NCBI GenBank assembly: GCA_964438045.1
Contig: CAYTIY010000001.1
Span: 132-64,131, forward strand
Direction of reading: 5' to 3'
Source: an uncultured Bacteroidales bacterium
GTDB lineage: Bacteria > Bacteroidota > Bacteroidia > Bacteroidales > UBA1402
Length of the DNA: 64,000 nt
The notes below the pieces were generated by a model, which made no database searches, had not been told where the DNA came from, and saw nothing but the letters and a program-made list of their open reading frames with translations. Of the stretch, positions 21,901 through 56,877 are shown in pieces. Each line of letters opens with the position of its first letter. Within the stretch, counting starts at the first letter, position 1. A program made the position numbers and the translations under genes.

Positions 21901-24900
21901 TTACTGTACCCCCGGCAACATGAACACCCACCATGTCGGCTGCCCCTGTATTGTTGAAATTGAAACCCCTGAATGTATTGCCTTGAAGGCTGGTTGCCGT
22001 GGCAGTGCTGACATTGAGGTAAACACCATAGAACGTGGTGGCCTGACCAATCTTTGACCAGGTCCCCACAGCACCGGGTGCTTGACCACCCAGGAAATTA
22101 TTGATCACTTGGAAGCCTTGTCCGGTTGTGTTGTCGATACGAATCAAGGCGTATTCGCAGGCAACAGGCACCGACTGGGTCAAGGTGTTGTAGATACTGT
22201 TGCCGGACACAGTAAAGTCTGTCGTATTGGTTGACAAATAAATTACATTGGAAGAAACACCTGGTATCAAGAGGTCAAAGAAGGCATTGTCTACTATCTG
22301 AGTAGCATTGTTGGTACGGCCTACTGTTCCAGCTGAGTACACAGCGTTGAGTGGACGTTCGCTGGAATTGAGTCCGGTGATTTGATTGTAGCGCACCACG
22401 TTGCCCACGTTACCGGTACCCGTAGATGAAGTACCTAAGTGAACAAGGCCTGTCGCTGTACCTTGACCCGCCCCTTTCAGGATACAATACTGCAAGGTGT
22501 CTTGTTGGGCCGACTCAGCCAGTTTGATGGTTGAAGCGTTGGTACCCGTGCTGATATTTGTAAACGTCAGGCCGGGGGTTGATCCAATGGCGTTTACGCG
22601 GCCGTCGATGGTCACTCGGTCAGCTCCTTGTAAAAGCACCAAGGGGGCGTTCATGGAGCCAGCAACTGCAATATTCTCCCTGGTCGCGTATACGCGGACC
22701 CGGCTGTAGGAAGGGCCACTTCCACTAGCCAGCAAGGAAGCTGTCGCCGTTTCGTAGGTGCTTTTTAAAATCTTGACAGTAATGTCGCCTGTCCAAGCCG
22801 AGGAATTGATGTCGTCAAACGCACTCTTCAGTGTCGTATAAGCTTCCCGTTTGGTGTTGTTCGTCCAGATTTCCACACAGAGGAAATACTCCCAGGCACC
22901 TATGGTGGGGGCCGTCATGCTGCGTTCACTAGCCCCAAAATCAGTCAGGACGCCGGCAGGTATGCCATCCAGCAAACCACCCGTTTTGTAATCCAAAGGC
23001 GAGTTGCCACCAGCGTTGAGTAGGCCAGGATTACTGGATATACTGGCTGCATCTTTCGAGGTTGCCAGCCTCCAAGCTGCAACCGTTGTGTAGTTGCTGG
23101 CGCCCAACCGCCCCAGCATATTCGTGCCCCCCGGTACATAGTAGTCGTTGCCGTTGATGGCCGACAAAGAAGATATACCGGACAATGAAATGGCGTAATG
23201 TCGGCTTGACGTGTTGCCTCCGGTGCGGGCGTTGTACAAGATATTGTTGAGCAAGTAAGAGGCTCCAACATCAGAATATTTAATAAATGCATAAGTCAAG
23301 GCTTGAGAACCTGTTCCATTCACCGTACCAGATAGATATACCGTGTTGTGGGCTATGGTATCGGAAAAATCGGTCACACCCAACTCGTAAATGCCGTAAA
23401 TCAGATTATATCCGGTGATATTGCCCCCAAGACTGATGACATTATTGACACAGGTGGAGGAACCATTTTGAAGCCAAATTCCTGAAATGGATGGGGATAC
23501 GCTTGCTGAGGCCAACGAAAGCCTGTCTACAAAATTACCTTTGATCTGAGCTGAACCTGTACCGGTCTTATAGATGCCGACAACCTGGTTGCCAGTGTTG
23601 TTGTACGTGGATGCGTTGTAGAGGTTGCTGACCGTGTTTCTTTCCACGATCCACTTGCCTGTCCCTTCATAACGGAGCGCGTCGAGTCGTTGCGCCTGGG
23701 AGGTGGCAGCACTGGTTGTTTGCACACTTTGAGTAGTGGTGTTGCTACCAACGGTGTTGTCGCTAACTGTAAGTTGAGCATTGCCCGTACCGTATATACC
23801 GTAGAAGTTGTGTGCGTAACCGGCCGAAGAGGTAACCGTAATGCCCCCCAGGGTGTTGTTGGATACGGCAACATCGCCGCCACCACCCACATAAATACCA
23901 GCAGAACTGGCGTTGGAGGCTGCCGATGTCACGATGATTTTACCGTTACCGGCCATGGCTCCGATGATATTGCCCCTTTCGGTGCCCAGATTTACCGATC
24001 CTCCCGTCACATAAAAGGCAGCAAATGGTTGGTTGGAAGCACTGACCACGTTCAGGTTGGTGACGGTATTGCCCTGGAGGCTGGAAACAGAATCCGTCCC
24101 CACATTCACTTGGAAAGCCGTAAAGGAAGCAGCCGCCGATGTTACCCCAACGTTCATGGTATTTCCCAAACCTTGCTCCAAGGTGCCACCCACGAAATTA
24201 TCAGCCACAATATGCCCACCTCCGGCGGTGTTGTTCAGGTTGACCGCCGAATAGATGTATGCCCCTGTCGGGGTGAAGGCTGTTGTTTCGTAGAAATGGT
24301 TGCCGGTCAACATCCAATAATCGGAGCCTGCTCCCAACATCACCATGTTGGCGCTGGAAGCCTGTCGCCAGGTGTCAACGAACGTATTGTTTGAAACGAA
24401 GTTGTCACTGTTCGTCCGCCCCGTTGTTCCTTGTGAAAGAAGGGCATTGTACGGTCTGAGGGTAGTGCTCAATCCGGTAAAACGGTTGTTGTTAATGATG
24501 TTGTTGTCGTTACCTTCACCGGTAGAAGCGGTTGAGATATGCAGGATGGCTGAAGACGTCCCCGAACCAGCACCACTCAAGAGGCAGTACTGTATCTTAT
24601 TTTGAGTCGCAGACTCACCAAGTCTGACAGTGTTGGCCGACGAGCCTGTATTTAGATTGGTCAAGGTTAAGTCAATGGTTGTTCCCACCGTGTTTACCCT
24701 ACCATCGAACGTGACATTGTCGGCCCCGTTTAACCGGATGATGTCACCGTTGAGGTTCCCCCTGACCACGACATTGCTTCTGATGGGATGAATCAAGACG
24801 CTGCTGTAGTTGGCTGAACCTGTTCCGCTGGCGTTCAGTTGGGCGGTAGCGGTTTCCAGGGTGCTACCTTTTAGTTTAATGGTCAGATCCCCTGTCCAAG

Positions 24901-27900
24901 TGCCAGCATTGATGGCATCGAAGGCATCTTTCAAGGTGAAGTAAGAGGAACGGTAGGTGCTGCCGTTGAGGACATCCACGGGGAAGCACTCCCAGGCCCC
25001 CATCGTCGGACTTCCGGCACTACGTGTCAACCCGCCAAAATCTGTCGAAACACCTGTTCCCGGAATCCCGTCAAGACCAATGTTGGTCTTGTAGTCGACA
25101 GGAAGGACGCCACCCATGTTGACAAACTGCGGATCCAGAATCAGGCTATGGGTATCTTGTCCCGCCATGGTTTCCAACCATTGTTGCAAGGTCACCAGAT
25201 TACCTGAATTGATGGTTGCAAAATAAGTACCTGACCAGCCGTAGTCATTGTAATCGATGGTCAGGTTGCTGGAACCGTGTAAGTACAAGGCATAATTGGA
25301 TCCTCCACCGGAACGGGTGTTGTAGAAAACGTTGTTGCGAATGTCGCGCTGAGCCGGAGTGCCGTCTGTCCTTTCCCTGAGCGCATAAGAGGTGGTGGTA
25401 CTGCCGTCAGACACGACACCGCCCAGGTGAATGGTGTTGTGGTAAAGATTGAACGCCTTGGGAGTATTTTTCAATATTCCGAAAATGTTGCAACCTTTTG
25501 AAATGCTGTCACCCATGAACACAATATTGTTAAAGGCTGACAAGGAGCCGGTAAAAGTTCCCGTCGTATTGTGTATAGAAATGCCATGGAGGTAACAAGT
25601 GGTGCTTTCGGACAGCATCTTGAACCCCTTTACGAAGTTGCCGGCCACTGTGTCGTTCCCACTTGAGGAAGGGGTCATGTAAATACCGTAGAACTCAACT
25701 TGTGACGTCGTGTTGCTCGTGAGTCGGCCGACCTGGTTTTGGACGATGTAGTGGGGATAGGCTGATGCATACACATGGATGCCCGTCATGGACACGTTGG
25801 TGTAATTGGCGCCGTTCGCTGAGCCGTTTGACGTCAGGTCATGGATGTTATTGCCGATGATACGGGATCGACCACTCAGCACATAGATGCCATAAGTCTT
25901 TGAACTGAGAGTGGTTTCGGTGGTGGCATTATAGACGTTGCCTACTGTATTACCTTGAATCAACACCAGGTCTGTCCCTTCTGAAAAAATGCCATACACC
26001 GTCTGCGATTGGCCGGTGGCGCTGCTGCTGACTAGTACACTCTCCGGTTTCGAAGGACTACCGATGTAGTTATTCCGTATGGTCAATGTGCCAGTTGTGG
26101 GGCCTTTATAAATAGCGTGGAAACTGTGGGCGTTGGCGTTGTTGGTTGAGGATGTGGTAATGGAACCAATCGTATTGTTGGCGATGACTGTGGAGGCTGT
26201 GTTGACGGCATATATACCATAAGATGTGGCCGAAGTCGCCGTGCTTGTCAGTTGGATGGAGCCTATGCCAACGGTGTCCCCTATGCTGTTGCCTGCAAGG
26301 GCGCCCACGTCCAGGCTGCCGTTATTGAGGTATATGCCGAAGAAAGGTGAAGTGGCCGAACTTCTGATAGCCAGGTTGCGAATGATGTTGCCATGTAACA
26401 ACGTGGGTGTTGTCGTACCTGTATTGATATAAATGGGGATAAAGGCCAGGCCTCTCAAAGTGCCACTGACTCCTATCTGCAGGGGGCTACCCAAACAAAG
26501 CATATCCTGACCACCGATTGCATTGCCGGACAGTTGAAATCCATGGCCTGAAGTATTTGACAAGTTGATACCGTAGTACGTATAATTGCCACCAGGCGTG
26601 AAACTAGTGGTCTCATACAGGCTATTACCGGACAGCACCCATCCTGATGTCCCCAACCCCAGGTTGACACCATAGGAAGTCGTTGTGGTGGACCAGGTGT
26701 CGTAGAGTTTATTGTGTAGCAGTATATGGCCCGTGTTGGTGCCACCGGCTGCGTACACAGCATTGACCCTGCGTGTGCCATTGTTGGTGATGTGACAACG
26801 CTCAACCATATTGGCGGTGTTGATGCCGGAAGCACCAAAATGGATGGTACCGTTGGTGCTGGATCCCCCTCCACCGCGCACGTAGCAGTAGCGGAGAGTG
26901 TCTTGTTGGGTCGAATTGTTGAACAGTACTGTGACCGCAGATGCACTGGTACTGGTGTTGGTCAGTGTCAACGAGGGCTCCGATCCTGTTGCGTCTACCC
27001 GACCATCCAAGGTGACGTTATCGGCACCGTTGAACGTAATCAGTGGAGCGTCCAGGTTGCCCGTCACCGTCAAATTGGCAATGGTGGGGTGTACCAGCAC
27101 CCGGGTGTAGCTTGCACTACCTGATCCGCTTGCATTGAGTGCTGCGGTGGCATTTTCCGAGGAATTGCCGATCAGCTTCACAGTCAGGTTGCCGGTATAG
27201 GTACCATCGTTGATCTTGTCGAAGGCCAATTTCAAGCGACGAAAACTGGCTTTGTAGATGCCATTTTGGTAAACCTCGACCGTGTTTAGGGCAGCCAATT
27301 CCCAAGCTCCGATTGTGGGCTCAGCCGGGCGTTCCGATCCATCATAGTCGGTGGTGGTGGTTCCTTCAGAATTGGTTGCAGTCAGTACTTCAGTGGGTAT
27401 ATAGGCTTCAGCGTAGGCACCCCCTTCCTCTTCAAACACGGGGTCGGCAGAAAGGCTGGTGGCATCCAAGCTTGCACCCGTCTGCCAGGACGACAAGGTC
27501 GTGTAGGTGTCGGTCGTATAGGTAGTGGCATTATAGGCCCAACCCAGGGCGCTGTTGGTGCCGGACACATACAGGTCGTTGTTGTTACTGACGACCCCAG
27601 ACGTCGTATTCAAAGCGATGGCCATATGTTTGCCCGTGCCTGTGCCCCCGGATCTATCGTTAATCAGCAGATTCCCCGATAGATTAATGTCGGTGCTCCA
27701 ACCATCTTTGTAGAAGGCAACTGAATTGGCGTTAGTGCCTGTAGTGGTACCGTAAATATAAACCGTGTTGTGCAGATAGGTCTCCGACGCACCGCTTTTG
27801 CTGAGTATGCCGCAAATGGTATAGTTCTTGCCATCCAACCCCTCACCCAGTGATATCACATTATTGTACGCCGACAAGGGGCCTGCCCCCCAGTGATAAG

Positions 27901-30133
27901 AGTAGATACCAGCCACAATGTTGGCGGTTCCCGTTGATGCGCAACTTAATCCGTAAATAAAGTTGGCAGCAACCGTTGTGGCGGCTTCACCAGAGGGTTG
28001 GATACCGGCTACGTAGGCACCGGCGTCGTTGCGGGTCGTACCGTTGTATAAATTAGCGATGACGTTATCGGTGTAGGATTCGCCACTTTTACCCGATGAA
28101 TAAATCCCCACCAGAAACTGATTGTTGCCGGTGGCTGTCGAGGTACACTGTATGCTACGTGGCGTACTGATGCCGCCTATGGTGTTATCCTTAACTGTGA
28201 TGGAGTCAGGACTGAACTTACGAATACCGTAAAAGGAGTGGGCATTGGCTGGGTTGGTATTTTCCGCTGTCACGGAGCCGATGCCATTGTTGTGGATGGC
28301 GATGGATCCGGGTTGGTATTCGCACAGGATACCGTAAGAAGTGGCCGAGGTGGCGGACGATGTCAGTACCAAGGAACCCGTGCCTATGGTATCTCCGATG
28401 AAGTTGCCGACCTCCGAACCTATCTGGACAGCTGCTCCCGATACTTTGACACCGGTGAAAGGGGTGCTGCCTGAACTCTTGACCGTTAAATTGCGAATGA
28501 TGTTGCCTTGAATCGAACTGTTTACCGTTGTCCCGGCACGTATGCAGATGGGCGTCAGTGCAATATCCTTCAAACTGCTAGTTGTGCCAACCGTCATCAC
28601 GGCTCCTCCACACTGAGGTGCACGCCCGCCAATGTAATTATTGGAGAGGGTATACCCGCCTTGTCCAGATTGGTTGTAAATATAAATACCTGAATACTCG
28701 TAGGCTCCGTTCGGAACCAGGGTTGTTGTTTCGTAAAAGTTGTTTCCGGTCAGGTTCCAGGCCGAATTGGTTGGAGCTGACACGCCGGTTTCCCAACTGT
28801 TGAAATAGATGCTTCTGGAGGTGGCTGTGGCCGACCAGGTGTCGAAAAAGGCATTGTTGCTGACAACGTTGTTGGTGTTTGTCCAACCTTCCACGTACAA
28901 AGCAACAGGCCGCCTTGAGCCATTGTTTGTCAGCGCGTTGTTGGTCAGCGCATTGAACGAATTTGAGCCACTGCTGAGAAATGAGACGGTACCATTGGTG
29001 CCGTTGCTGTTGCCGCCGCCTTTGATCGTACAGTACGTAACTATATTGTGGCTGGCTCCATTGTTCAATTGCAAAGTAACAGCATTCCATCCATTGCTGG
29101 CATTGTTTAGAGTCAAGGCACTCGAGGACCCTGTTGCATTGAGACGGCCATCAACCGTAACATTGTCAGCGCCGTTCAGGTAGATGAGAGGACCGTCGAC
29201 GCTGCCCCCAATGGTGGCCCCCGGCACAATGGGATAAATCGTGAGATCGGTGTAATTGGTGCTAGCCTGGCCGCTTGCGTTAAGGGTGGCGGTTGCAGTC
29301 TCCGATGTGCTGCCCAAAACATTGATTGTCACAGCGTTGGCATGTGTACCTGCGTTAATAGCGTCAAACGCAGCCTTCAAGGTAAAATACCTGGCCTTTG
29401 ACGTACCCGATGTGGCTGTGACCAGGATGGGGGGCGGGCTGTATTCGATCCATCGGTTGTTGGTGCCTGAGGATACCTCCTGCCATTTATGAAAGTAGTT
29501 GCTCACACCGCTGTGGATGCCCAAATCGGCACCCGATTGACTGACATTGTCCGAACCAAAAAGCAGTACCACCTTGTTGGAGGTTTCATGAAATTGTACT
29601 TGGATATCAGCGTACAAATTGGAATTCCAATTGATCTCCAGATTTTGGTATTCAATAGTGAAAATCCGGTAAGGGGCTGTTCCTGTCACCGTTGAGCGTA
29701 CCCAACTACCAATGTCACTGACATTGCCATCATAAAGGCCCATGGCAATGATTTGCCCAAAACCGGTACTACTGGTGTTTAGCTCGTAGCTGCTGGCATC
29801 CGTATAACTTGTATTGGCTGTTCCATCCAACCGAATATACCCATTGGTACACACACTCAACAAATTGGAAGTCGTGTAGCTGTCTCCGTAAAATTCAAAG
29901 TTGAACGGCCAGGCTATCGTCGCTTGTGCGTCATCCAGGGAGACAATGCTGCTTCCGCCTGAACAATCAATCCAGTTGTAGGTAGTACCAAGGGTGCCTG
30001 TAGTTGTGGTGTAGTTCCAACTGGCAGAGGCGGCTTGTGCGATAAGTCCAAAGAAAAGGGCGGGTCCCAGCAGGAACAAGATACGGCAAAGGCGTCCACC
30101 TTCGGCGAGCGGTTTGGTCAGCGTGCGCAGCAT
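18980..30133 (-). CDS. Giant (about 3,717-aa) surface protein: NIDO/lectin-like N-domain, four ~700-770-aa parallel beta-helix modules, C-terminal region and T9SS sorting domain
   Basis: The minus-strand ORF is uninterrupted for 11.2 kb. The ATG is at 30131-30133 (MLRTLTKPLAEGGRLCRILFLLGPALFFGLIAQAASA); the track start at 30157 is TTG. Four modules each open with Y/F-x-x-LK-x-AFD-x-IN and end with PT(I/M)GA(W/L)E. The composition is rich in Thr/Ser/Gly/Asn. The C-terminal tail LMVYDLSGRVLKRHSMFGGERFELSLKQRGVYIVSLRSETAKYDVKVVY is typical of T9SS cargo. Confidence 0.85.
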   Translation of the reverse strand: MLRTLTKPLAEGGRLCRILFLLGPALFFGLIAQAASASWNYTTTTGTLGTTYNWIDCSGGSSIVSLDDAQATIAWPFNFEFYGDSYTTSNLLSVCTNGYIRLDGTANTSYTDASSYELNTSSTGFGQIIAMGLYDGNVSDIGSWVRSTVTGTAPYRIFTIEYQNLEINWNSNLYADIQVQFHETSNKVVLLFGSDNVSQSGADLGIHSGVSNYFHKWQEVSSGTNNRWIEYSPPPILVTATSGTSKARYFTLKAAFDAINAGTHANAVTINVLGSTSETATATLNASGQASTNYTDLTIYPIVPGATIGGSVDGPLIYLNGADNVTVDGRLNATGSSSALTLNNASNGWNAVTLQLNNGASHNIVTYCTIKGGGNSNGTNGTVSFLSSGSNSFNALTNNALTNNGSRRPVALYVEGWTNTNNVVSNNAFFDTWSATATSRSIYFNSWETGVSAPTNSAWNLTGNNFYETTTLVPNGAYEYSGIYIYNQSGQGGYTLSNNYIGGRAPQCGGAVMTVGTTSSLKDIALTPICIRAGTTVNSSIQGNIIRNLTVKSSGSTPFTGVKVSGAAVQIGSEVGNFIGDTIGTGSLVLTSSATSATSYGILCEYQPGSIAIHNNGIGSVTAENTNPANAHSFYGIRKFSPDSITVKDNTIGGISTPRSIQCTSTATGNNQFLVGIYSSGKSGESYTDNVIANLYNGTTRNDAGAYVAGIQPSGEAATTVAANFIYGLSCASTGTANIVAGIYSYHWGAGPLSAYNNVISLGEGLDGKNYTICGILSKSGASETYLHNTVYIYGTTTGTNANSVAFYKDGWSTDINLSGNLLINDRSGGTGTGKHMAIALNTTSGVVSNNNDLYVSGTNSALGWAYNATTYTTDTYTTLSSWQTGASLDATSLSADPVFEEEGGAYAEAYIPTEVLTATNSEGTTTTDYDGSERPAEPTIGAWELAALNTVEVYQNGIYKASFRRLKLAFDKINDGTYTGNLTVKLIGNSSENATAALNASGSGSASYTRVLVHPTIANLTVTGNLDAPLITFNGADNVTLDGRVDATGSEPSLTLTNTSTSASAVTVLFNNSTQQDTLRYCYVRGGGGSSTNGTIHFGASGINTANMVERCHITNNGTRRVNAVYAAGGTNTGHILLHNKLYDTWSTTTTSYGVNLGLGTSGWVLSGNSLYETTSFTPGGNYTYYGINLSNTSGHGFQLSGNAIGGQDMLCLGSPLQIGVSGTLRGLAFIPIYINTGTTTPTLLHGNIIRNLAIRSSATSPFFGIYLNNGSLDVGALAGNSIGDTVGIGSIQLTSTATSATSYGIYAVNTASTVIANNTIGSITTSSTNNANAHSFHAIYKGPTTGTLTIRNNYIGSPSKPESVLVSSSATGQSQTVYGIFSEGTDLVLIQGNTVGNVYNATTETTLSSKTYGIYVLSGRSRIIGNNIHDLTSNGSANGANYTNVSMTGIHVYASAYPHYIVQNQVGRLTSNTTSQVEFYGIYMTPSSSGNDTVAGNFVKGFKMLSESTTCYLHGISIHNTTGTFTGSLSAFNNIVFMGDSISKGCNIFGILKNTPKAFNLYHNTIHLGGVVSDGSTTTSYALRERTDGTPAQRDIRNNVFYNTRSGGGSNYALYLHGSSNLTIDYNDYGWSGTYFATINSGNLVTLQQWLETMAGQDTHSLILDPQFVNMGGVLPVDYKTNIGLDGIPGTGVSTDFGGLTRSAGSPTMGAWECFPVDVLNGSTYRSSYFTLKDAFDAINAGTWTGDLTIKLKGSTLETATAQLNASGTGSANYSSVLIHPIRSNVVVRGNLNGDIIRLNGADNVTFDGRVNTVGTTIDLTLTNLNTGSSANTVRLGESATQNKIQYCLLSGAGSGTSSAILHISTASTGEGNDNNIINNNRFTGLSTTLRPYNALLSQGTTGRTNSDNFVSNNTFVDTWRQASSANMVMLGAGSDYWMLTGNHFYETTAFTPTGAYIYSAVNLNNTAGGGHIVADNFVGGTLEQGLGNTMNVGVTSAAASFTAFQVNVGTDSVSSLQGNTVTNLNVVSASNQPFAAFYVTGGSVNLGTERGNIIGAMAGNGKIIVTSAASNASSAGIYVGGGGDVAVSNNTLGGITVTSSAGYAHNFYGIYGTGNAQLTVSDNTVGSNTTTQSVQTTSAATSQAQRLDALRYEGTGKWIVERNTVSNLYNASTYNNTGNQVVGIYKTGTGSAQIKGNFVDRLSLASASVSPSISGIWLQNGSSTCVNNVISLGGNITGYNLIYGIYELGVTDFSDTIAHNTVYLSGTVNGTGSQALTYAFIKYSDVGASYLLNNILYNARTGGNTSSRHYAISLSGISSLSAINGNDYYVPGGTNMLGRLGASNYTTVAAWRLATSKDAASISSNPGLLNAGGNSPLDYKTGGLLDGIPAGVLTDFGASERSMTAPTIGAWEYFLCVEIWTNNTKREAYTTLKSAFDDINSSAWTGDITVKILKSTYETATASLLASGSGPSYSRVRVYATRENIAVAGSMNAPLVLLQGADRVTIDGRVNAIGSTPGLTFTNISTGTNASTIKLAESAQQDTLQYCILKGAGQGTATGLVHLGTSSTGTGNVGNVVRYNQITGLNSSERPLNAVYSAGTVGRTNNATQIVDNAFFDLLIPGVSSNVIYLSTNTTDFTVSGNSIYNTLTQSVPVACEYALIRIDNTTGQGFQVINNFLGGQAPGAVGTWSKIGQATTFYGVYLNVSTATATSLQGNTFRGFNFNNTGAADMVGVHVAGGTVNVGSTTGNVFGAPTGTGSITLTNSGSDAAFYGVRIQGSGTVTCNNNTVGSVTAANSTPANATNIYGISKAAVSGNLTVSNNVIGSSTTPNSVQATSEAYNTNQLVYGLYSLGTGTNVFSGNTLANIGNKTVETIKASKLVGMYIGAGSNTIQNNTLINLTSGGSANGAQGANAPVIGLLLSTTTAGQQVTGNTISKMQNTSTAKVYVYGLYYAGPTSGTNVLATNFINRMLLPLAPPESVVYGMSMQQGTASVYNNIIAIGDSLAKGMTLYGLQNASNSTLTIFHNTLYIGGTVAAASSSTYAFGNESTGTHTIRNNIMANHRSGGGKHYAILLTGTSGLTINYNDYWAGGVNGILGRLSTDRSTIAAWRSATGQDLNSLNLNPDFILPGSTMPVDYTPTVTLDALAGLVNIDYVGTVRATPPTMGALEFSGYYWTGTLDTDWSKPGNWMPHYVPTSLIRANIPQRINQPLINNGVQAAASTLVIYAGAVVTINGGGALTVASNVVNNAGETGLVINSTASGTGSFICNQDGIYATVRRYINGEMATDTAAWHLLSTPVAAQPIQGTVWTPAGQYGDGTAYDLFVWDEPSASWIYNLNTTTPDYTTWTVAHPSATFVPGRGYLYSLYDSIATPAFSGYLNNGLVNYALTKDGAGSQSGFHLVGNPYPSSIDWKAASGLTRTALDATSGGYDLWMWSSISNNYGVYNSIEPDDLGTLSASRYIAPMQGFFVKAASAGQLGFANEARVHESASAWLRSSDATASGAVRLTVASLDGLGKDEVKLSFGFSTNDKGTGKLFSYVQTAPSLYLPLRNQPYTIRRMTTPEANGKTPVAFKPGVEGRYTLQVRFDAALTNTVILEDKLTGTFHDFAEFPVYTFTAASSNPVNRFVLHYGSIQPEDKPSLADIFVKGENLVVDLNKLKDDYTLMVYDLSGRVLKRHSMFGGERFELSLKQRGVYIVSLRSETAKYDVKVVY
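20609..29389 (-). repeat. Four tandem, diverged, in-frame coding repeats (about 2.1-2.3 kb each) inside the giant gene
   Basis: Module starts were mapped from the DNA: YFTLKAAFDAIN at aa 257 (nt 29389), FRRLKLAFDKIN at aa 972 (27244), YFTLKDAFDAIN at aa 1739 (24943) and YTTLKSAFDDIN at aa 2440 (22840). The last module ends at MGALEFSG (about nt 20609). Amino-acid numbers are relative to the track start at 30157. Confidence 0.8.
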
Positions 30134-30207
30134 CTTGTTTATCCTATTCACTATCAACTCTTTATATTAACATATTACCCATATGGGCAAGGTATCACTA
30201 CCAACAC

Positions 30208-50198: not shown

Positions 50199-51665
50199 TT
50201 AAATTGAACTCAATGCTGTAGTTAAATAATGCCAGAAACGCTCCACACTGGCTACTTCTACTTTTTCATCGGGTGAATGCGGAAATGAAATGGTAGGACC
50301 AAACGAAATCATTTCCATGTCTCCTACCGCGTGTTGAATGATACCGCATTCAAGACCGGCATGAATAACGTTCACTTCAGGACGTTTACCAAACAAACGT
50401 TCGTAAGCTGCCACCATGACATCCATTAAATAAGATTTCAGATTGGGCATCCAACCCGGATAATCACCCGAAGTGCCCACCTTAGCACCAGCCAATGAAC
50501 ATGTGCTCTGAATCATCGAAACAAGCTGCTCCTTCATGAAATCAGAGGCACTTCTCACCAGGAATTGACATATTACCTCGCCCTCGCGGGTCTCTACAAT
50601 TGAAAGGTTGGATGATGTCTCCACCGTTTTCTGCATGCCGGGGATGTACCGAATAACGCCGTCATGCACAGCAACCATGGCATTGATGACATCATCCTGT
50701 ACTTCAACTGGCAATACGCCATTCGGCAGGTTCACCGGTAAAACACCAATCGATATAGCGTCTTCAATACCGTTGTACAGTTGTTTTAAGGAAGATTCTG
50801 TCTCTTTTATGTATTTCACCAGTTCCTCGTAACGGGATTCCGGAACGGTTAAAACAGCAAAAGCCTCCCTGGGTATTGCATTGCGCAACGTACCTCCACG
50901 ATAGGCAGCCAGGCGCACACCAAAATTTCGTACAAGGAGCTTCAATAAATTAAACATGACCTTGTTGGCGTTTGCCCTACCCAAATGAATGTCAACGCCG
51001 GAATGCCCCCCTTTCAGTCCGGTCAACGTCAGCTCTATGGCACGGTGTTTATCCGAAACAGGTGACAACCTTTCGTAAGCAAATAACGCATCTACATTTA
51101 CACCACCAGCACAGCCGACAAATAATTCTCCCTCAGCTTCAGAGTCAAGATTGATTAATGTACGTCCATCAATTGAATCTGCAGCAAGCCCGAATGCGCC
51201 GTCCATACCCGTTTCTTCATCTATCGTGAAAAGAGCTTCTATTGGTCCATGCACAAGTGTTTCCGAAGCCAGGACAGCCATGATGGCAGCAACCCCGATT
51301 CCATTATCAGCACCCAATGTCGTATCGGTAGCATGGACCCATCCATCCACCAATCGTGGTTTGATGGGATCTTTTTCGAAATCGTGGATTATATGGCTGT
51401 TTTTCTGAGGCACCATATCCAAATGTGACTGCAACACAACGATGCGACGTGACTCCATACCCAGAGTGGCGGGTTTGGTTATCAGAATATTTCCAATTGC
51501 ATCTTTTTTTGTTGGCAATCCTAGTTTTTGTCCAAATTCAATCATGAAATGTTGAATCGGCTCCATATGGCCGGATGGTCTGGGAACCTGGGTCAATGCA
51601 TAGAAATGTTGCCACAACTCGGTAGGGTTAAGTTTGCTGATCGTGTCTTCCATCTGTTCGTTCAT
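50199..51665 (-). CDS. pepD: Aminoacyl-histidine dipeptidase (Xaa-His dipeptidase, M20 family)
   Basis: LNPTELWQHFYAL..., VVLQSHLDMVPQKN, TTLGADNGIGVAA, IDEETGMDGA, GLKGGHSG and IHAGLECG align by eye with E. coli PepD. ATGs occur at 51663-51665 and 51651-53; the track start is GTG. Confidence 0.9.
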   Translation of the reverse strand: MNEQMEDTISKLNPTELWQHFYALTQVPRPSGHMEPIQHFMIEFGQKLGLPTKKDAIGNILITKPATLGMESRRIVVLQSHLDMVPQKNSHIIHDFEKDPIKPRLVDGWVHATDTTLGADNGIGVAAIMAVLASETLVHGPIEALFTIDEETGMDGAFGLAADSIDGRTLINLDSEAEGELFVGCAGGVNVDALFAYERLSPVSDKHRAIELTLTGLKGGHSGVDIHLGRANANKVMFNLLKLLVRNFGVRLAAYRGGTLRNAIPREAFAVLTVPESRYEELVKYIKETESSLKQLYNGIEDAISIGVLPVNLPNGVLPVEVQDDVINAMVAVHDGVIRYIPGMQKTVETSSNLSIVETREGEVICQFLVRSASDFMKEQLVSMIQSTCSLAGAKVGTSGDYPGWMPNLKSYLMDVMVAAYERLFGKRPEVNVIHAGLECGIIQHAVGDMEMISFGPTISFPHSPDEKVEVASVERFWHYLTTALSSI

Positions 51666-51666
51666 T

Positions 51667-51704
51667 AAAAAAAAATGTACCACCGGTTAAAACCAGGTGG
51701 TACA
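51667..51704 (-). terminator. Rho-independent terminator of the DUF4956 / VTC / CotH operon
   Basis: tgtaccacc (51676-51684) pairs with ggtggtaca (51696-51704). On the minus strand it is followed by T9 (complement of 51667-51675). Confidence 0.65.
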
Positions 51705-51750
51705 CAAAAATAACACAACCGAGTGTATATACCCTATAAAAATGCAAAAA

Positions 51751-52488
51751 TCAATAGTTTTCAGGTTTGAAATTTTCAGGTTTCAATTGCTTCGAAGAAA
51801 TATTGTGTGTCAGTTCGTTGTTGTTCGGTTTATAAAACAACTTGATGTATGCAACATCACGTAAGAAATCAATATTCCCCACTTCCACCTTAATGATATC
51901 CAGCCCCGTACGGTTTTTCAAATCCTCAATAAGCTCCTTTTCACGTTCAGGCACCACATTCTGAATCTTGTCGTACAGTACAATCTTGAAAGCAGTATGT
52001 TTGAGAACTTTGTTGTTTTCAAGTATCCATGTGACAATCAAGAACAACATGTTGGTCGCAAACAATTCAGAGTAACTGACAGTCATTGCCAGTCCGTTGA
52101 TCACAGAAATACCGATGATTTCAAACAAGTATGTCATTTCCCGAATGGGAACCGTTTCCGTTCGATAACGTATCATGCCAAAGATGGCAAACAATCCCAA
52201 AGCAAAACCCATTTGCAACTTGACATTGTCTAACAGGAAGATCAACAGGAAAATAGTGACACTGAAAAGCAGGAAGGTAAAGTAATAGTCCCGGCGTTCA
52301 CTTTTCTTGTAGTAAAAAAACTGGATGATAATCCAACATATCAATAAGTTGAAACCAAAACGAATGAGCAATTGTGCCAAACTTGGACCATCAAAAAGGG
52401 GAATATCCAGGAAATTATAATTGGGCACATCTTGGACGGTACCGGTCGAAAGTAGTTGTTCCTTTAGTAAGAGATCTGTAGAAGTCAT
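51751..52488 (-). CDS. DUF4956-like polytopic membrane protein
   Basis: 245 aa with 4-5 TM segments and a soluble C-terminal ~80 aa. Its start overlaps the VTC gene stop as ATGA (52485-52488). The family assignment is from recollection of the conserved CotH / VTC / DUF4956 gene trio. Confidence 0.6.
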   Translation of the reverse strand: MTSTDLLLKEQLLSTGTVQDVPNYNFLDIPLFDGPSLAQLLIRFGFNLLICWIIIQFFYYKKSERRDYYFTFLLFSVTIFLLIFLLDNVKLQMGFALGLFAIFGMIRYRTETVPIREMTYLFEIIGISVINGLAMTVSYSELFATNMLFLIVTWILENNKVLKHTAFKIVLYDKIQNVVPEREKELIEDLKNRTGLDIIKVEVGNIDFLRDVAYIKLFYKPNNNELTHNISSKQLKPENFKPENY

Positions 52489-53261
52489 TTTTCTGTACTG
52501 GTTAATTTATTGATGTATCTAATCTTAGTTCTAAATCGGTTGTTTTTTGCCGATGGATCAGTCATGACAGTTCCCAAGCAGTACTTGCTTATGCCTTTCG
52601 GACGAATCCGGCAATCCAGCAAATAGTCCTTGATTTTTGAGTGCACCCTTCCGTCCTGTTTAAGTTCAATGATGATCAAATTATTCATTACCACCTGTTT
52701 ACCATTCCTGCAATTGAAAAAATGCAGGTTTGTGTCTATGGTTATCCGCTCAGAAAGGTTGTTGTTCACCAACGTGATCCGATCAAATGAGGTATTTACA
52801 TGTGGAAAAAGGCGTTGTTCGTCATACGGAGAATTTTGTGTCAGAAACTCGTGCAGTTCAGTATTTAATGATTCACAAACTTCCTGATCTCCCTGCAATT
52901 GAACCCTCACCTTGTTTGTACGTCCCTTGTTGTTTTTTTTCTTTATCTCCAGAAAGTGCAAATCTGAATCGACATATGTCCTCAACCGTACTTTCTGACG
53001 AGGAAGCTTACCATTCTGGTGGAGTGTGTACATTTCCAGGTCGCTGGTGTCGTAATACTGCGTACTGTATTGGCTGATGGAATGACCTTCCACATGCTGA
53101 ATGCGAAAATCCTTTTCGGCAAATTCAAGCAACTTGGGGAGCAGGCTCGAGGGGGCAAGGTACTTGGTATCTATCCGATTCATCAACCGGACACCTTTCA
53201 TTTCGGCCAGCGTAATAGGCTTGATGTGGTTGCACAAGGTTTGCATCAATGTATTGTTCAT
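52485..53261 (-). CDS. VTC-domain (polyphosphate polymerase / triphosphate-tunnel) protein
   Basis: RLMNRIDTKYL, YSTQYYDTSDLEMY, RQKVRLRTY and HFLEIKKKNNKGRTNKVRV match the bacterial VTC-domain pattern. The start was set at the ATG at 53259-53261 to avoid a 65-nt overlap with the upstream gene. Confidence 0.7.
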   Translation of the reverse strand: MNNTLMQTLCNHIKPITLAEMKGVRLMNRIDTKYLAPSSLLPKLLEFAEKDFRIQHVEGHSISQYSTQYYDTSDLEMYTLHQNGKLPRQKVRLRTYVDSDLHFLEIKKKNNKGRTNKVRVQLQGDQEVCESLNTELHEFLTQNSPYDEQRLFPHVNTSFDRITLVNNNLSERITIDTNLHFFNCRNGKQVVMNNLIIIELKQDGRVHSKIKDYLLDCRIRPKGISKYCLGTVMTDPSAKNNRFRTKIRYINKLTSTEK

Positions 53262-53280
53262 TATATCAGTCACTGCATTG

Positions 53281-53997
53281 TCACAATTTAACTCCCAACC
53301 CGATGGTAAGGACATTTGATCGTTCGGCCTCATCGCTGTCAACATCTGATGTATACAGATATCCCAACTTGACAGACCATTTTTTCTGAATCGTATATTT
53401 CACACCGGCACTCCATCGATAGCTCTTGAATTGCATCGCGTCTGATCCATTTTCTAGGGCGTTGAATAATTCAACAAAAGCAAACGGTTCAAGAGGCAAT
53501 CCTTTTATGTTGTATGATACACCAGCTTTCGAACGCAACACAAATTTCGGGTTTGTTTTTGCAGTCGACAACGAATCGAGAACCCTGTACGTAGATTGTA
53601 CACGTTCTCTCAGTGTAAAATCAAATCGACCGAGGGTATATTCGCCTTCACCGTATACATTGAACCGGTGTCTCAGTTCCCAGAAATTGTGTTCGTGCTT
53701 GTTATCCCTTGGATGATAGTAATTGATCAACACATAGGAGGCTCCGGCTGTAAGGTAGGACCCAATTCCGTAACTGAGATCCACGGATGTCTCAAATTTA
53801 TCGGTCGTCAACAAATCGTTCCTCAACCGAAATTCCTCTTCCACCTTCAACTTCAAACCGTTGTTGAATTTTTTACTGACTTCCACACCGGACCAGATAC
53901 CAAAATCAGCATCCTGAGCTGCCACGGCACCTGCAAGTGTACATAATGCAGCCAGCAGAAGCCCCTTTTTATTTATCATTTTAACTATATTTCTCAT
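53281..53997 (-). CDS. Small outer-membrane beta-barrel protein (DUF2490-like)
   Basis: 238 aa with a signal peptide, alternating amphipathic beta-strands, and a terminal TIGLGVKL. Its ATG overlaps the CotH stop as ATGA (53994-53997). Confidence 0.55.
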   Translation of the reverse strand: MRNIVKMINKKGLLLAALCTLAGAVAAQDADFGIWSGVEVSKKFNNGLKLKVEEEFRLRNDLLTTDKFETSVDLSYGIGSYLTAGASYVLINYYHPRDNKHEHNFWELRHRFNVYGEGEYTLGRFDFTLRERVQSTYRVLDSLSTAKTNPKFVLRSKAGVSYNIKGLPLEPFAFVELFNALENGSDAMQFKSYRWSAGVKYTIQKKWSVKLGYLYTSDVDSDEAERSNVLTIGLGVKL

Positions 53998-55733
53998 TGC
54001 ACCGTGTAGCTGAATACATCATGCTCGGCTCCGGCAGGCATGTAGGTTCTTGTTCTGGTGGCGTTTCCCCTAACCGCTTCTATGTAAAAACGCACTCTTA
54101 CGCCCGAGCGTTGCGGGTTGATCAGTGCTGAATAGACGCCATCACCGGCAATAATGTCACCGTGTTGCCCGTTATCAAACATCTGAAGTCGCTTGAACCC
54201 GCCGAACAAACCCGTGCCAGCACATAAAAAAACACTGTTGGCATGTCCGGTACCTCCAACATGTACGGATACGGCAACCGTATCTGTCAAGGTTGGTTGA
54301 TTCCAAGCTATTCCGTCTACTTTCCACTCAACATTGGAAAGAGTCATTCCTGCCATATCGATCGAATCGTGCGTATTTAAAAAAGCTGAACGCTGGGCAA
54401 TTGTCTGTTTCATTGTTGCTATGGATGCCAAAAAGTCTCCGTGAGTAAACGAATTTCTTTGGTCCGCCAGTATGGCAGAGTCTACCTTCAACGCAAATTC
54501 ATCAATCAAGCTATTGAGATATAACGGATTATACACTTCTTTCAGTATGGTTCGGTAATGAGCCAGATAACGTTGTCGAATGGAAGGAACCGCCAACAGC
54601 TTGTTCAACAACGGAAAACGAACGTCATCGGCGTGATAGAACGGATCCCATGCAACAGACTCTTCCATAAATGTATCTTTCCCATCGTATTCAAGTGGTG
54701 TCAAGAGGCCCGTTTCCTTGTTCCAGAACAAATAATAATCTGTACCACCTTTGTTTACGTAACCATCTTCATCAGCAAACACGTTTTCACATGCCAGGAA
54801 CCAAAGTGTTCTATCCAAATCCAGCACCTTACGAATGGCTGTTTCCAGCGAATCCGGCTCAGTCTTTTCAAGAATCCGGCATACGGTCACGATATCATCC
54901 AACGGTTCCGCTGCTGTGGGACTATTCTTCAAATCATAATAGGGTGCATAGTCTGCCGCCGTTTCACCCAAATAGTTCAAACCTGAATATCCAGTTCCGT
55001 AAACTCCCACCTTGCTGGTATCTGCGTCTTTTGTAGGTTCCGCACGCCATCTGGATCCATTGGTGGAAAGAAACCACTCACGTATAAAAGATGCATTCAG
55101 GTGTTCGGTGTTGATGTACAGTCCCTGGTCGGTACCATTGACGCGCAGGTTGACAAAATTGACTTGCAGGGCAGGAATGTATCGCCTGATACAATGGCGG
55201 TAGATGGCCTCCCTAAGATATGTTTGATCTTTACCCGGACTGTTCAGCGCCAAGGTATAATACCCATTGAGTACTTGATCCTTGTCCACGGCATCAATCG
55301 TGATGTAATAAGAGGGCTTTTCACCGGGACTATCCGGTGTTCCCTTAAACCTCACTCCAACCTGGGCTGGTAGAGTAATTCCCCCATACTTCAAGGTCGC
55401 ATTGATCTCATCATCTCCGTCTGCCAAAGCCTTGAGTTGTTCTTCCCAATTGGATGCGGAAAAATTCAGTTCAACTACGCCGATTTCAGACAGTGTATAA
55501 ATGCCGGTCTGTTCAGTCAGCCCCATTTGCAAGCGGTGTAGGGATGTGTTCTCACTCATGAACAGCGGTTTCGTTCCCGATACGCCCGTAGCAATCGATC
55601 CGTCTGACGGTTCGGAAACAACATATGCAGTGTCATCTCCATCATACCTGGGCGGTGTGTAAACACCGTCATCCGCACAGGAAATCAGAAAAAGAAAGGA
55701 TATGATTAACAAAAAATACGGGATACGGTTCAT
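53994..55733 (-). CDS. CotH-family (atypical protein kinase fold) lipoprotein
   Basis: The lipoprotein signal is FLFLISCADDG. YLREAIYRHCIRRYIPALQVNFVNLRVNGTDQGLYINTEHLNASFIREWF matches the CotH pattern. A C-terminal beta-sandwich contains MFDNGQHGDIIAGDGVYS. Confidence 0.7.
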   Translation of the reverse strand: MNRIPYFLLIISFLFLISCADDGVYTPPRYDGDDTAYVVSEPSDGSIATGVSGTKPLFMSENTSLHRLQMGLTEQTGIYTLSEIGVVELNFSASNWEEQLKALADGDDEINATLKYGGITLPAQVGVRFKGTPDSPGEKPSYYITIDAVDKDQVLNGYYTLALNSPGKDQTYLREAIYRHCIRRYIPALQVNFVNLRVNGTDQGLYINTEHLNASFIREWFLSTNGSRWRAEPTKDADTSKVGVYGTGYSGLNYLGETAADYAPYYDLKNSPTAAEPLDDIVTVCRILEKTEPDSLETAIRKVLDLDRTLWFLACENVFADEDGYVNKGGTDYYLFWNKETGLLTPLEYDGKDTFMEESVAWDPFYHADDVRFPLLNKLLAVPSIRQRYLAHYRTILKEVYNPLYLNSLIDEFALKVDSAILADQRNSFTHGDFLASIATMKQTIAQRSAFLNTHDSIDMAGMTLSNVEWKVDGIAWNQPTLTDTVAVSVHVGGTGHANSVFLCAGTGLFGGFKRLQMFDNGQHGDIIAGDGVYSALINPQRSGVRVRFYIEAVRGNATRTRTYMPAGAEHDVFSYTVQ

Positions 55734-55816
55734 GGTTTGGAAATAAGGGTTGCCACAAATGTAGGTGTTTCTTTACAGAGGGAAAAACAAATTGAAGAAA
55801 AAGGCGATTTCAGTCC

Positions 55817-56803
55817 TTATTTATTCTTACGCGCGTAAAGCATAACCCAAGCTAAAAAGCCAAAAATCAACGACTGTGCCATTTGCATGCCGTGAACAAC
55901 AAGAGCAAAAATGGCCGCCTCCGGTTCGGCCACCCCGTAGAAGGTTAATGCGTATATCACCATGAAATGATACGCTCCAATTCCCCCCTGAACAGGAGCC
56001 AAAACGCCAAGACTCCCCATTACGAATGCGCTTAACATAGGAATGGCTCCCAATGGAATCTCAAATGGAAAAAAATATCGACCCACATAGAACATCAAGA
56101 AATAGACAATCCAGATTAATATGGAATACCCGACAAACAGTATGGGTTTCTTCAACGTGCCAATGGTTTTCATACCTTCCCAAAGCTTCAGCATAAAACC
56201 CCTTGCCTTATCAAATATGCGGTTCTTCCTCCATTGATCCTTGACAAGTAATGCGAGCACGATGAGCAGAGCTATTCCGCCCCATAAAAGCGGTGACTTG
56301 ATCACTTGCAGTAGTTTCTCCAAAGAAGCTGGATTTTCACGAAAGAAATCACCAAAAAATCCAAGTTGCATCAAAATGGCTATCAAAGCAATCAACAACA
56401 AGCACGCTGAGTCAAATACACGTTCTGATATCACGGTTCCCAGGGAACGCGAGAAGGATAACCCGTCTTTTTTTGATACGATGCCACAGCGTGCCACCTC
56501 TCCGGCTCTGGGAAACAGCAGGTTGACTGCATAACTGACAAAAACAGCCAGTATAGCTGTCATATTCTTGCTTTCAGCCGAAACAGGCTCCAACAACTGC
56601 CTCCATCTCAATCCACGTAATACGTTGCTGACGAAACTCAGCGCAACGGCTAGGAGCAACCAACCGTAATTCAAACCACTTTTAAACACGCCGGCCAACT
56701 GCCCAAAGTCCATATCCCTGTATACCAGCCAAAACAGCAGAATGGCCAGTGCAAGCGGAATCACAACTTGAAGTATTTTTTTTACCAGTGGCATACTCTT
56801 CAT
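55817..56803 (-). CDS. UPF0104 / lysylphosphatidylglycerol-synthase-TM-like (flippase-like) membrane protein
   Basis: About 328 aa with 8 predicted TM segments. SNVLRGLRWRQLLEP is typical of the family. The ATG is at 56801-56803; the track start is TTG. Confidence 0.65.
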   Translation of the reverse strand: MKSMPLVKKILQVVIPLALAILLFWLVYRDMDFGQLAGVFKSGLNYGWLLLAVALSFVSNVLRGLRWRQLLEPVSAESKNMTAILAVFVSYAVNLLFPRAGEVARCGIVSKKDGLSFSRSLGTVISERVFDSACLLLIALIAILMQLGFFGDFFRENPASLEKLLQVIKSPLLWGGIALLIVLALLVKDQWRKNRIFDKARGFMLKLWEGMKTIGTLKKPILFVGYSILIWIVYFLMFYVGRYFFPFEIPLGAIPMLSAFVMGSLGVLAPVQGGIGAYHFMVIYALTFYGVAEPEAAIFALVVHGMQMAQSLIFGFLAWVMLYARKNK

Positions 56804-56877
56804 CAAAAAGTAGTACTTTTGTAGGATATGTACGTGCGTGAGGGCACAAATGTACTAATTTTTTCGTACTGAGGTGG

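Follow-up and report, generated by a model that had tools for sequence, protein, structure and literature searches.

Yeast couples the synthesis of polyphosphate (polyP) by its VTC complex to transit of the polymer through a membrane, and current overviews, one from 2026, treat VTC4 as a eukaryotic enzyme and assign to bacteria only PPK1 and PPK2. The PPK enzymes also make polyP from adenosine triphosphate (ATP), the net reaction proposed below, but their folds are unrelated and their products remain in the cytoplasm. In Gram-positive streptococci, clostridia and bifidobacteria, genes for CotH, a polyphosphate polymerase, DUF4956 and DUF4832 directly follow pelDEADAFG (Whitfield et al., bioRxiv 10.1101/768473; bioRxiv 10.1101/2024.04.20.589940), and this accessory block is SIR_1594-1592 in Streptococcus intermedius (bioRxiv 10.1101/2024.04.20.589940). 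The NELoc-2 locus of Clostridium perfringens holds VTC-domain genes, CotH, a glycosyltransferase and a polysaccharide deacetylase together, and BT3498-99 of Bacteroides thetaiotaomicron are the DUF4956 and DUF2490 entries of a transcriptome table. We found no functional study of a bacterial VTC, DUF4956 or DUF2490 protein in the literature. Here we describe an operon of CotH, DUF2490, VTC and DUF4956 genes in a 64,000-nucleotide (nt) stretch of DNA from an uncultured Bacteroidales bacterium (contig CAYTIY010000001.1, called the window below). By sequence and predicted fold its VTC protein is a Vtc4-type enzyme, and related genomes almost always pair the gene with that of the DUF4956 membrane protein. 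We tentatively propose that the system makes polyP and exports it through the cell envelope.

All four genes are read from the minus strand in the order CotH-DUF2490-VTC-DUF4956. The CotH gene (55733-53994) encodes 579 amino acids (aa) and matches PF08757 (E = 8.5e-32); the DUF2490 gene (53997-53281) encodes 238 aa and matches PF10677 (2.2e-29) and OMP_b-brl (1.5e-8); the VTC gene (53246-52485) encodes 253 aa and matches PF09359 (3.1e-30); and the DUF4956 gene (52488-51751) encodes 245 aa and matches PF16316 (4.7e-55). Each family scores well over its Pfam gathering threshold. An ATGA overlap joins the CotH stop to the DUF2490 start at 53997-53994, and another joins the VTC stop to the DUF4956 start at 52488-52485. 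DUF2490 and VTC are about 34 nt apart when VTC starts at 53246. The longest VTC open reading frame (ORF) begins at 53345 and would overlap DUF2490; a start at 53246 (or 53261) is favoured, and we set it at the ATG at 53246 because homologues are 253-262 aa long and the identical protein in the database is called from that position. There is no fifth gene within the operon, which ends on the minus strand in an intrinsic terminator (51666..51705), a hairpin at 51705-51675 followed by a U-run. Its stem of 10+3 bp (13 bp, interrupted) has an energy of -18.8 kcal/mol, whereas shuffled sequences average -8.05 (z = -5.07) and 0 of 200 are equally stable; RNA folding against shuffles detected this hairpin, which a simple pattern-based terminator scan overlooked. 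An earlier sequence-only reading of the window had proposed the four co-oriented genes, their families, the two ATGA junctions, a strong terminator and the motifs LISC, RIDTKYL, YYDT, KVRLRTY and EIKKK..K.R. The ORF list, the Pfam hidden Markov models (HMMs), the nucleotide sequence, the folded hairpin with its U-tract and the translations, respectively, bear these out.

The layout resembles the pel accessory block in that a secreted CotH, a VTC-type enzyme and DUF4956 are contiguous. The window operon differs in having no pel genes and no DUF4832, which is absent from both the operon and its immediate flanks, and in adding an outer-membrane DUF2490 barrel. Its CotH, a lipoprotein, carries a choice-of-anchor-X domain at the C-terminus, whereas CotH of the pel block has an FN3 domain.

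The VTC protein matches PF09359 with 105.9 bits against a cut-off of 23, over profile positions 1-231 of 235. It is a stand-alone protein with no signal peptide, transmembrane segment or SPX domain, and Pfam finds in it the VTC domain only. Sequence searches of the PDB with the protein alone and with a 21-sequence profile gave nothing useful, so the relation to Vtc4 was found through a structure model and Foldseek. The AlphaFold2 (AF2) model, made with 21 homologues, has a predicted local distance difference test score (pLDDT) of 92.8 and a predicted template modelling (pTM) score of 0.89. Its best 13 PDB matches are the tunnel domains of Vtc4, Vtc3 and Vtc2 (E 2.7e-11 to 3e-9, template modelling score about 0.6), headed by Vtc4 entries 3g3r, 8i6v and 3g3q (E about 3e-11). 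YgiF (5a60), CYTH proteins, thiamine triphosphatase (ThTPase; 3tvl and 5a65) and AtTTM3 (5a5y) rank lower, at E 6e-9 to 1e-4.

A cryo-electron microscopy (cryo-EM) study of yeast VTC identified K200, R264, R266, K281, R361, K458, S457 and Y359 of Vtc4 as triphosphate-binding and E426 as the Mn ligand, and mutagenesis showed these residues to be essential for polyP. In the same study K458 was the sole residue of the set replaced in the inactive Vtc2 and Vtc3, and Y359F in Vtc4 reduced polyP in yeast. Eight of these nine positions are identical in the window protein, where K200 corresponds to K28, R264 to R87, R266 to R89, K281 to K102, R361 to R156, E426 to E194, S457 to S220 and K458 to K221; the ninth, Y359, is F154. 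Vtc4 was aligned by hhalign and MAFFT; residues 24-176 follow hhalign, and the C-terminal S-K pair was placed by eye through the SKYxxG/SKFxxG motif, as adding Vtc4 to the family alignment (MAFFT --add) misplaced the N-terminal RxDxK and C-terminal SKYxxG motifs. The yeast Vtc4 and Vtc1 query sequences were 100% identical to the PDB chains. The eight matching positions, but not position 154, are invariant in 21 Bacteroidales sequences, and homologues from Deinococcus, Aminobacter, Nitratireductor and Nonomuraea have all eight too. A Streptomyces homologue departs at two of them (K28S and S220T). Position 154 is Y, as in Vtc4, in the homologues from Alphaproteobacteria and Actinomycetota. On strand 1, R24-I-D26-T-K28 aligns with R196-Q-T198-T-K200 of Vtc4 (hhalign). 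This RxDxK motif is nearer to the RxTxK of Vtc4 than to the ExExK of triphosphate tunnel metalloenzyme (TTM) hydrolases, and ExExK itself is not present on strand 1 of the window protein. By every test applied here, of sequence and of modelled structure, the protein belongs to the VTC domain family. It is a Vtc4-type enzyme by sequence and fold, from which we infer polymerase activity.

The eight-stranded tunnel fold is also that of TTM/CYTH hydrolases and cyclases (YgiF, ThTPase, AtTTM3, CyaB-type), and the superfamily includes adenylate cyclases, thiamine triphosphatase and tripolyphosphatases. The window enzyme might then be a triphosphatase or nucleotide cyclase whose small product is sensed by the ACT-like domain of DUF4956, a kind of domain that suggests small-ligand binding; the change of Y359 to F and the acid at position 26 would suit such an enzyme. 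We consider this highly improbable. Vtc-type domains are clearly closest by fold, and the Pfam match is to VTC, not CYTH. RxDxK stands in place of the ExExK signature, and the basic tunnel lining and the S-K pair follow Vtc4, with the polymerase-specific K458 and S457 conserved across phyla. Linkage to a barrel and to secreted proteins would also go unexplained.

That linkage was counted in a scan for VTC homologues using one genome per species, in which at least 586 species genomes were matched; the counts refer to the best 80, all Bacteroidales. In 78 of the 80, the next gene after VTC is a co-oriented DUF4956, and the median distance between the two is about 32 nt. The gene immediately after DUF4956 is DUF2490 in 59 of the 80, and a co-oriented DUF2490 match is found in 62. 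In a plasmid/chromid collection, all 16 VTC-bearing records have DUF4956 within 300 nt; these come from Alphaproteobacteria, Deinococcus and Actinomycetota, including Aminobacter, Shinella, Nitratireductor, Streptomyces and Nonomuraea. A seventeenth record, a Pseudoalteromonas chromid (locus L085, 6652-8657), carries a truncated VTC remnant, then DUF4956, then an annotated porin. The linkage of VTC to DUF4956 is far beyond chance. The two behave as an obligate pair, near-obligate across phyla, and they make up the conserved core together with DUF2490 in Bacteroidales. It is probable that VTC and DUF4956 form one functional unit acting on tri- or polyphosphate at the membrane. In the Pseudoalteromonas record, a lamin-tail-domain protein is encoded just upstream of the VTC remnant.

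CotH was rejected as a core component, being present in 1 of the 80 VTC-anchored loci. That locus belongs to the closest relative and has the same gene order as the window. In many of the remaining loci, the co-oriented genes upstream encode a Cthe_2159 beta-helix lipoprotein (22 loci; PF14262, 1e-52), a CarboxypepD_reg-like lipoprotein (27) and a small DUF2963-like protein (32), and a DUF3413-sulfatase membrane protein is encoded downstream in 13. Examples from the CotH-less loci (L002-L080) are L072 5860-7515, L014 337-1083, L058 7449-7919 and L024 10133-11992.

A metagenome scan from the CotH side distinguished two forms of the kinase. Of 22 loci with short-form CotH (570-600 aa), 18 also carry VTC and/or DUF4956, and the remaining four sit on contigs of 5.6 kb or less. 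Long-form CotH (about 780-800 aa), which carries LTD/lamin-tail and type IX secretion system (T9SS) sorting domains, adjoins VTC or DUF4956 in 0 of 61 loci. The window protein is, by its sequence, a member of the short-form clade. Over the metagenome and genome loci, the four families occur in at least five gene orders: CotH-DUF2490-VTC-DUF4956, DUF4956-DUF2490-CotH-VTC, CotH-VTC-DUF4956-DUF2490, VTC-DUF4956-CotH and a divergent arrangement. The order is shuffled and the content constant, which argues for shared function over inherited synteny. In two arrangements a LytS-type His_kinase (PF06580) and a LytTR regulator adjoin the module (L092 942-2745; L174 6404-8322). The long-form loci (L112-L169 and L171-L173) come from Saprospiraceae, Flavobacteriales and others, with tandem paralogues in L141 and L146.

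The position of these genes in pel loci raises the possibility that they form an exopolysaccharide accessory module, in which the kinase, and perhaps polyP, would phosphorylate or regulate a secreted glycan or its machinery. The placement of cotH, polyphosphate-polymerase, DUF4956 and DUF4832 genes directly after pelDEADAFG in Gram-positive bacteria would fit this, as would the NELoc-2 combination with its glycosyltransferase and polysaccharide deacetylase and the carbohydrate-binding Cthe_2159 beta-helix protein of many Bacteroidales loci. The window operon is flanked by housekeeping genes, however, with no pel, glycosyltransferase or polysaccharide-export gene on either side, and the VTC-DUF4956 pair is widespread without polysaccharide genes. 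We consider a module of this kind very unlikely, although it would be compatible with polyP export rather than opposed to it.

DUF4956 is conserved more strongly than the VTC enzyme, with 59-86% identity among the best matches. The PF16316 match is full length and covers a polytopic core and a C-terminal alpha/beta domain. The AF2 model has five helices (about 37-158) and a C-terminal beta-alpha-beta-beta, ACT-like domain (166-219). An unbroken invariant block extends from Q92 to A134 and includes R107-Y-R-T-E111 and I115-R-E117. Hydropathy and the charges of basic loops 60-69, 107-117 and 158-168 predict an N-out/C-in topology. The C-terminal domain gave weak Foldseek matches to ACT domains, and the corresponding DUF4956 domain is named ACT in the S. 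intermedius pel study (bioRxiv 10.1101/2024.04.20.589940). DUF4956 was rejected as a relative of the Vtc membrane domain or of a solved channel on the results of hhalign, Foldseek and Pfam, and Pfam at E up to 10 returned the DUF4956 family alone.

An exhaustive profile search with DUF4956 returned 1,893 clusters at 50% identity, and fusion ORFs were sought among the best 150. A VTC::DUF4956 fusion ORF of 483 aa (P0467; L176 5001-6452), on a 110-kb contig, has the tunnel-then-membrane layout of Vtc4. A DUF4956::DUF2490 fusion ORF of 460 aa (P0367) represents a 36-member cluster and was found in two independent assemblies (L174 5001-6383; L175 284-1666). It lies 3' of Cthe_2159 and VTC and 5' of a His_kinase/LytTR pair, and it retains the barrel signal peptide in the middle of the ORF (…MQRTCVLVALMGLFVTVGYA, then QQ…), which implies a cytoplasmic C-terminus for DUF4956; its product could be a polyprotein cleaved by signal peptidase. 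A DUF4956::CotH fusion ORF of 671 aa (P0402) has the lipobox FLSSC at its junction. The fusion ORFs favour DUF4956 with its C-terminus inside, but suggest that its N-terminus is inside as well. Taken with the shuffled gene orders, the DUF4956::DUF2490 and DUF4956::CotH fusions speak for a direct functional link between the inner-membrane protein and the parts outside the cytoplasm.

A further joined ORF, the apparent CotH and DUF2490 fusion P0284, was rejected as Rosetta-stone evidence. In L083 (7968-10319) and L105 (142-2586), DUF2490 minus its last strand runs in frame into the CotH signal peptide, and L083 additionally has a DUF4956 fragment in front of the truncated DUF2490. Judged from these sequences, the joined ORF, seen in two samples, probably arose by deletion. 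In L105 (2583-3365) the gene that follows it encodes a Y_phosphatase3 lipoprotein (PF13350, 8.9e-45), a secreted phosphatase beside a secreted kinase.

The eukaryotic VTC complex (7ytj and 8i6v; tunnel domain 3g3q/3g3r) thus has PF09359 and the triphosphate-tunnel fold in common with the window enzyme, along with eight of nine substrate and catalytic residues, Y359 being F and T198 being D. The genetic tie of the window enzyme to a polytopic membrane protein, and in one case its fusion to one, parallels the coupling of synthesis to transit in VTC. Unlike in the eukaryotic complex, the window enzyme stands alone as a soluble 253-aa protein and lacks an SPX domain, and the system spans a two-membrane envelope with a dedicated barrel. 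The Vtc1/Vtc4 membrane domain has three helices, and DUF4956, with five helices and an ACT-like domain, has no detectable relation to it. With SPX absent and no detectable relation between DUF4956 and the Vtc membrane domain, the system resembles the VTC complex by analogy and does not belong to it. The sequence-only reading had spoken of a split bacterial VTC analogue: "split analogue" is apt, but homology to the complex does not hold. It had named as a test the tunnel Lys/Arg residues in a formal alignment, and these are kept. Its conserved gene set stands for VTC-DUF4956 (78/80) and DUF2490 (59/80) and falls for CotH (1/80). That the function is not established agrees with our literature search, but the set of cotH, polyphosphate-polymerase and DUF4956 genes had already been described beside pel operons. 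Compared with earlier reports, the novel points are a diderm form that has its own barrel, a pairing of VTC with DUF4956 that is near-obligate in different phyla, the fusion ORFs, the contrast between linked short-form and unlinked long-form CotH, and the residue-level match to active Vtc4.

The DUF2490 protein is predicted from its sequence to be a small outer-membrane beta-barrel. Its signal peptide ends in AVAAQ, directly before DADF, and leaves a mature part of about 210 residues with an alternating amphipathic beta pattern throughout (hydropathy); it also matches generic outer-membrane barrel models in Pfam. A net positive charge, as a sign of anion selectivity, was sought and not found (28 K+R vs 27 D+E in the mature protein).

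CotH has a signal peptide and the lipobox L-I-S-C (MNRIPYFLLIISFLFLISC, then ADDG), whose cysteine is Cys19. The acidic residues right after it (C-A-D-D) resemble the Bacteroidetes surface-export signal. The kinase domain spans about 127-452 and is followed by a C-terminal beta-sandwich with a "choice-of-anchor X" motif at 516-545 (NCBIfam NF041940, 2.9e-9); the PF08757 match covers the full profile length. A PDB sequence search with CotH alone gave nothing useful, so a family profile was needed: built from 23 short- and long-form relatives, it matched Bacillus cereus CotH 5jd9 at 2.2e-22 over residues 94-454. All 23 sequences have D323 and D350, which align with the DGF and PWD aspartates of 5jd9. 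In Bacillus subtilis CotH, mutation of D228 and D251 inactivates the kinase; we equate these with D323 and D350 since the 23-residue spacing of the 5jd9 aspartates matches. The window protein therefore shares its Pfam family and both catalytic aspartates with Bacillus CotH (5jd9/5jda). The Bacillus enzyme acts on CotB and CotG, two coat proteins, in the cytoplasm of the mother cell, which can supply ATP. The window CotH, unlike it, is an exported lipoprotein from a diderm that does not sporulate, and it carries additional domains at both its N- and C-terminal ends.

The four products are thus predicted to lie in successive layers: a cytoplasmic TTM enzyme, a polytopic inner-membrane protein, a signal-peptide barrel in the outer membrane and a lipoprotein kinase. 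These compartments, which the earlier reading had also given, hold, and their succession favours an export model. The soluble Vtc4-type tunnel enzyme would take the gamma-phosphate of ATP and build polyP from it on the cytoplasmic side of the inner membrane. DUF4956, its obligate membrane partner, would bind the enzyme by way of its ACT-like domain and the conserved basic loops that face the cytoplasm, and would conduct the nascent anionic chain over the inner membrane. In diderm Bacteroidota, the DUF2490 barrel would pass the chain over the outer membrane or anchor it there. An extracytoplasmic partner would then bind, use or process the polymer; here this would be the short-form CotH lipoprotein, and in many relatives the Cthe_2159 lipoprotein. 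In synthase-dependent secretion systems (cellulose BcsA/B/C, alginate, Pel and poly-N-acetylglucosamine), a polymerase that faces the cytoplasm is coupled to an inner-membrane conduit and a dedicated outer-membrane barrel, and one operon also encodes modifying enzymes of the periplasm or surface. By analogy, the system works most like such a secretion system built on a Vtc4-type enzyme. The likeness is one of layout only, with no homology to Bcs, Alg, Pel or Pga components; the polymer there is a glycan rather than the inorganic polyP proposed here, and the window barrel is far smaller (about 210 residues). The system is real and conserved, and the export model is plausible but unproven. For the whole chain, in which we infer activity, complex formation, translocation, its direction and the role of CotH, we would put the chance of its being right a little under even.

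Several observations weigh against this chain. Vtc4 Y359 is F154 in the window enzyme, a change that lowers polyP in yeast, and T198 has become an invariant D or E at position 26 (RxDxK), a step towards the hydrolase ExExK. The AF2 model of DUF4956 is moderately confident (pLDDT 69.8). Comparison of DUF4956 with yeast Vtc1 gave an hhalign probability of 0.1%, and its model recovered no VTC chain or solved channel (best Foldseek E 0.18); a conduit made of DUF4956 would have to be an independent invention. With five helices, the positive-inside rule places its N-terminus outside, but the VTC::DUF4956 fusion requires it inside, and both that fusion and DUF4956::CotH are singletons. The mature DUF2490 protein is electrically neutral and bears no mark of an anion channel; at about 210 residues, such a barrel may lack an open pore. 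CotH is lacking in 79 of the 80 related Bacteroidales loci, a CotH HMM search included, and one locus has DUF4956-CotH with no VTC within 8 kb. Finally, the phosphate-scavenging neighbours of the pair in other phyla suit uptake equally well as export.

These neighbours are a PiT phosphate transporter and a phytase-like esterase in Nitratireductor, a phytase-like esterase in Aminobacter, and phnCDE with a HAD acid phosphatase in Deinococcus. They suggest an alternative in which the flow is inward. The barrel and DUF4956 would import environmental condensed phosphate (polyP or tripolyphosphate), the tunnel enzyme, sitting at the cytoplasmic mouth, would pull it in by processive hydrolysis or by transfer to adenosine diphosphate (ADP), and a surface lipoprotein, CotH or Cthe_2159, would capture the polyanion, making the system a phosphate scavenger. 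Most characterised TTM enzymes are hydrolases, and the YgiF and ThTPase matches share the fold; surface lipoproteins of Bacteroidota often capture nutrients. The invariant D/E at position 26 is an acidic residue where hydrolases have one, and several microbes are described as growing on extracellular polyP by transport routes that are unknown. On the other hand, the active site fits the polymerase Vtc4 at eight of nine positions, K458 among them, the nearest folds are those of Vtc4 and not hydrolases, and the first glutamate of ExExK is R in the window enzyme, as in Vtc4. The SusC/D TonB-dependent pair, the normal route of polymer uptake in Bacteroidota, is not in the operon. The Pho-type neighbourhood itself is silent on direction, because the yeast VTC genes are phosphate-starvation genes. 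We regard uptake as unlikely. The phosphate-gene neighbourhoods in Alphaproteobacteria and Deinococcus are found at L090 6363-10403, L087 6971-9283 and L086 5635-11667.

The polymer might also stay inside the cell. VTC would then make membrane-tethered cytoplasmic polyP, with DUF4956 as an anchor or regulator whose ACT-like domain senses a metabolite, and DUF2490 and CotH would carry out a separate envelope task, such as phosphorylation of surface proteins, and be merely co-regulated. The authors of the S. intermedius pel study suggest that polyP may remain cytoplasmic there, other parts of the VTC complex being missing (bioRxiv 10.1101/2024.04.20.589940). The ACT-like fold at the C-terminus of DUF4956 is typical of ligand-regulated proteins, DUF4956 shows no channel-like homology by Foldseek or hhalign, and in other phyla many of the VTC-DUF4956 pairs lack a barrel or kinase in their vicinity. 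Against this, the DUF4956::DUF2490 cluster with its 36 members, the DUF4956::CotH fusion and the five shuffled orders argue for direct coupling. The most conserved part of DUF4956 is its membrane core, Q92-A134, which would be unexpected for a passive anchor, and cytosolic polyP from a Vtc4-type enzyme has been described as harmful in eukaryotes. Retention in the cytoplasm therefore seems to us improbable.

Within the export model, the part played by CotH is the least certain step. It is not obvious where a kinase active outside the cytoplasm would obtain ATP, and mainly for this reason we suspect a link between CotH and an exported phosphoanhydride polymer, which could serve as phosphoryl donor where ATP is unavailable. 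Any specific role for CotH in the system is nevertheless doubtful. The fullest version, trans-envelope polyP secretion by polymerase, DUF4956 conduit and barrel with the product acting as phosphoryl donor for a surface CotH kinase or as the group that it transfers covalently, we consider distinctly unlikely. If true, it would explain how kinases work outside the cytoplasm without ATP, and it would add a third, eukaryote-like class of bacterial polyP synthase, one that may be related to the ancestor from which the VTC tunnel domain came.

Should the operon encode a working polymerase joined to a membrane conduit, bacteria would have a third polyP route, able to place the polymer outside the cytoplasm; among them would be abundant gut and rumen Bacteroidales (at least 586 species genomes were matched here). 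This would bear on phosphate cycling, cation binding, the biofilm matrix and the host effects of bacterial polyP, and would inform the origin of the eukaryotic VTC tunnel domain. It would also provide a simple and genetically tractable two-protein model for the coupling of polymer synthesis to transit, for which B. thetaiotaomicron has the neighbours BT3498-99. Furthermore, it would give a testable answer to what serves as phosphoryl donor of secreted CotH kinases and to what purpose the accessory genes of pel loci serve.

The surroundings of the operon are those of a chromosomal region, not an island. One flank holds enolase, a beta-lactamase-like protein and a pepD-like dipeptidase, and the other an LPG_synthase_TM protein, ksgA, corA and DUF349. 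The base composition of the operon region is ordinary, and the housekeeping synteny is repeated in the relative whose CotH is 56% identical, so there is no sign of a mobile-element or island origin. Membership in an anti-phage defence system was rejected, as none of the four proteins had a PADLOC match. No other polyP gene was found among the eight large ORFs of the window that were scanned.

Upstream of CotH, an 83-nt gap separates it from the LPG_synthase_TM gene. A sigma-70 promoter scan found nothing in this gap. A possible Bacteroidetes-type -7 element, TAcaTTTG (55756..55763, minus strand), lies 22 nt from the CotH ATG; it is proposed from its position only, and it resembles the Bacteroides/Bacteroidetes -7 box, with consensus TAnnTTTG. 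It is weak evidence, because about 30 chance occurrences are expected in 64 kb. The neighbouring LPG_synthase_TM/flippase-like protein (55817-56806, minus strand) is stand-alone and co-oriented, and it adjoins the operon upstream in the clade of the window, with counterparts at L001 3450-4436, L008 6130-7188 and L093 4926-5909. Genome L008 is without CotH, yet retains this neighbour together with DUF2490-VTC-DUF4956.

Downstream, the U-tract of the terminator (51663-51705, minus strand) stops 1-2 nt short of the ATG of the pepD-like dipeptidase, so the dipeptidase must rely on read-through or on a promoter within the end of DUF4956. Its listed GTG start at 51683 falls within the hairpin, and the gene call in a relative gives 484 aa. 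Farther along the window, one ORF encoding 3,725 aa spans positions 18980-30157 (minus strand) and has no match in Pfam-A at E <= 1e-5. The GC content of this region is 0.51-0.53 compared with about 0.46, and its GC skew is positive. Downstream of the ORF, positions 11004-14468 encode an OmpA/CarboxypepD_reg protein of 1,154 aa.

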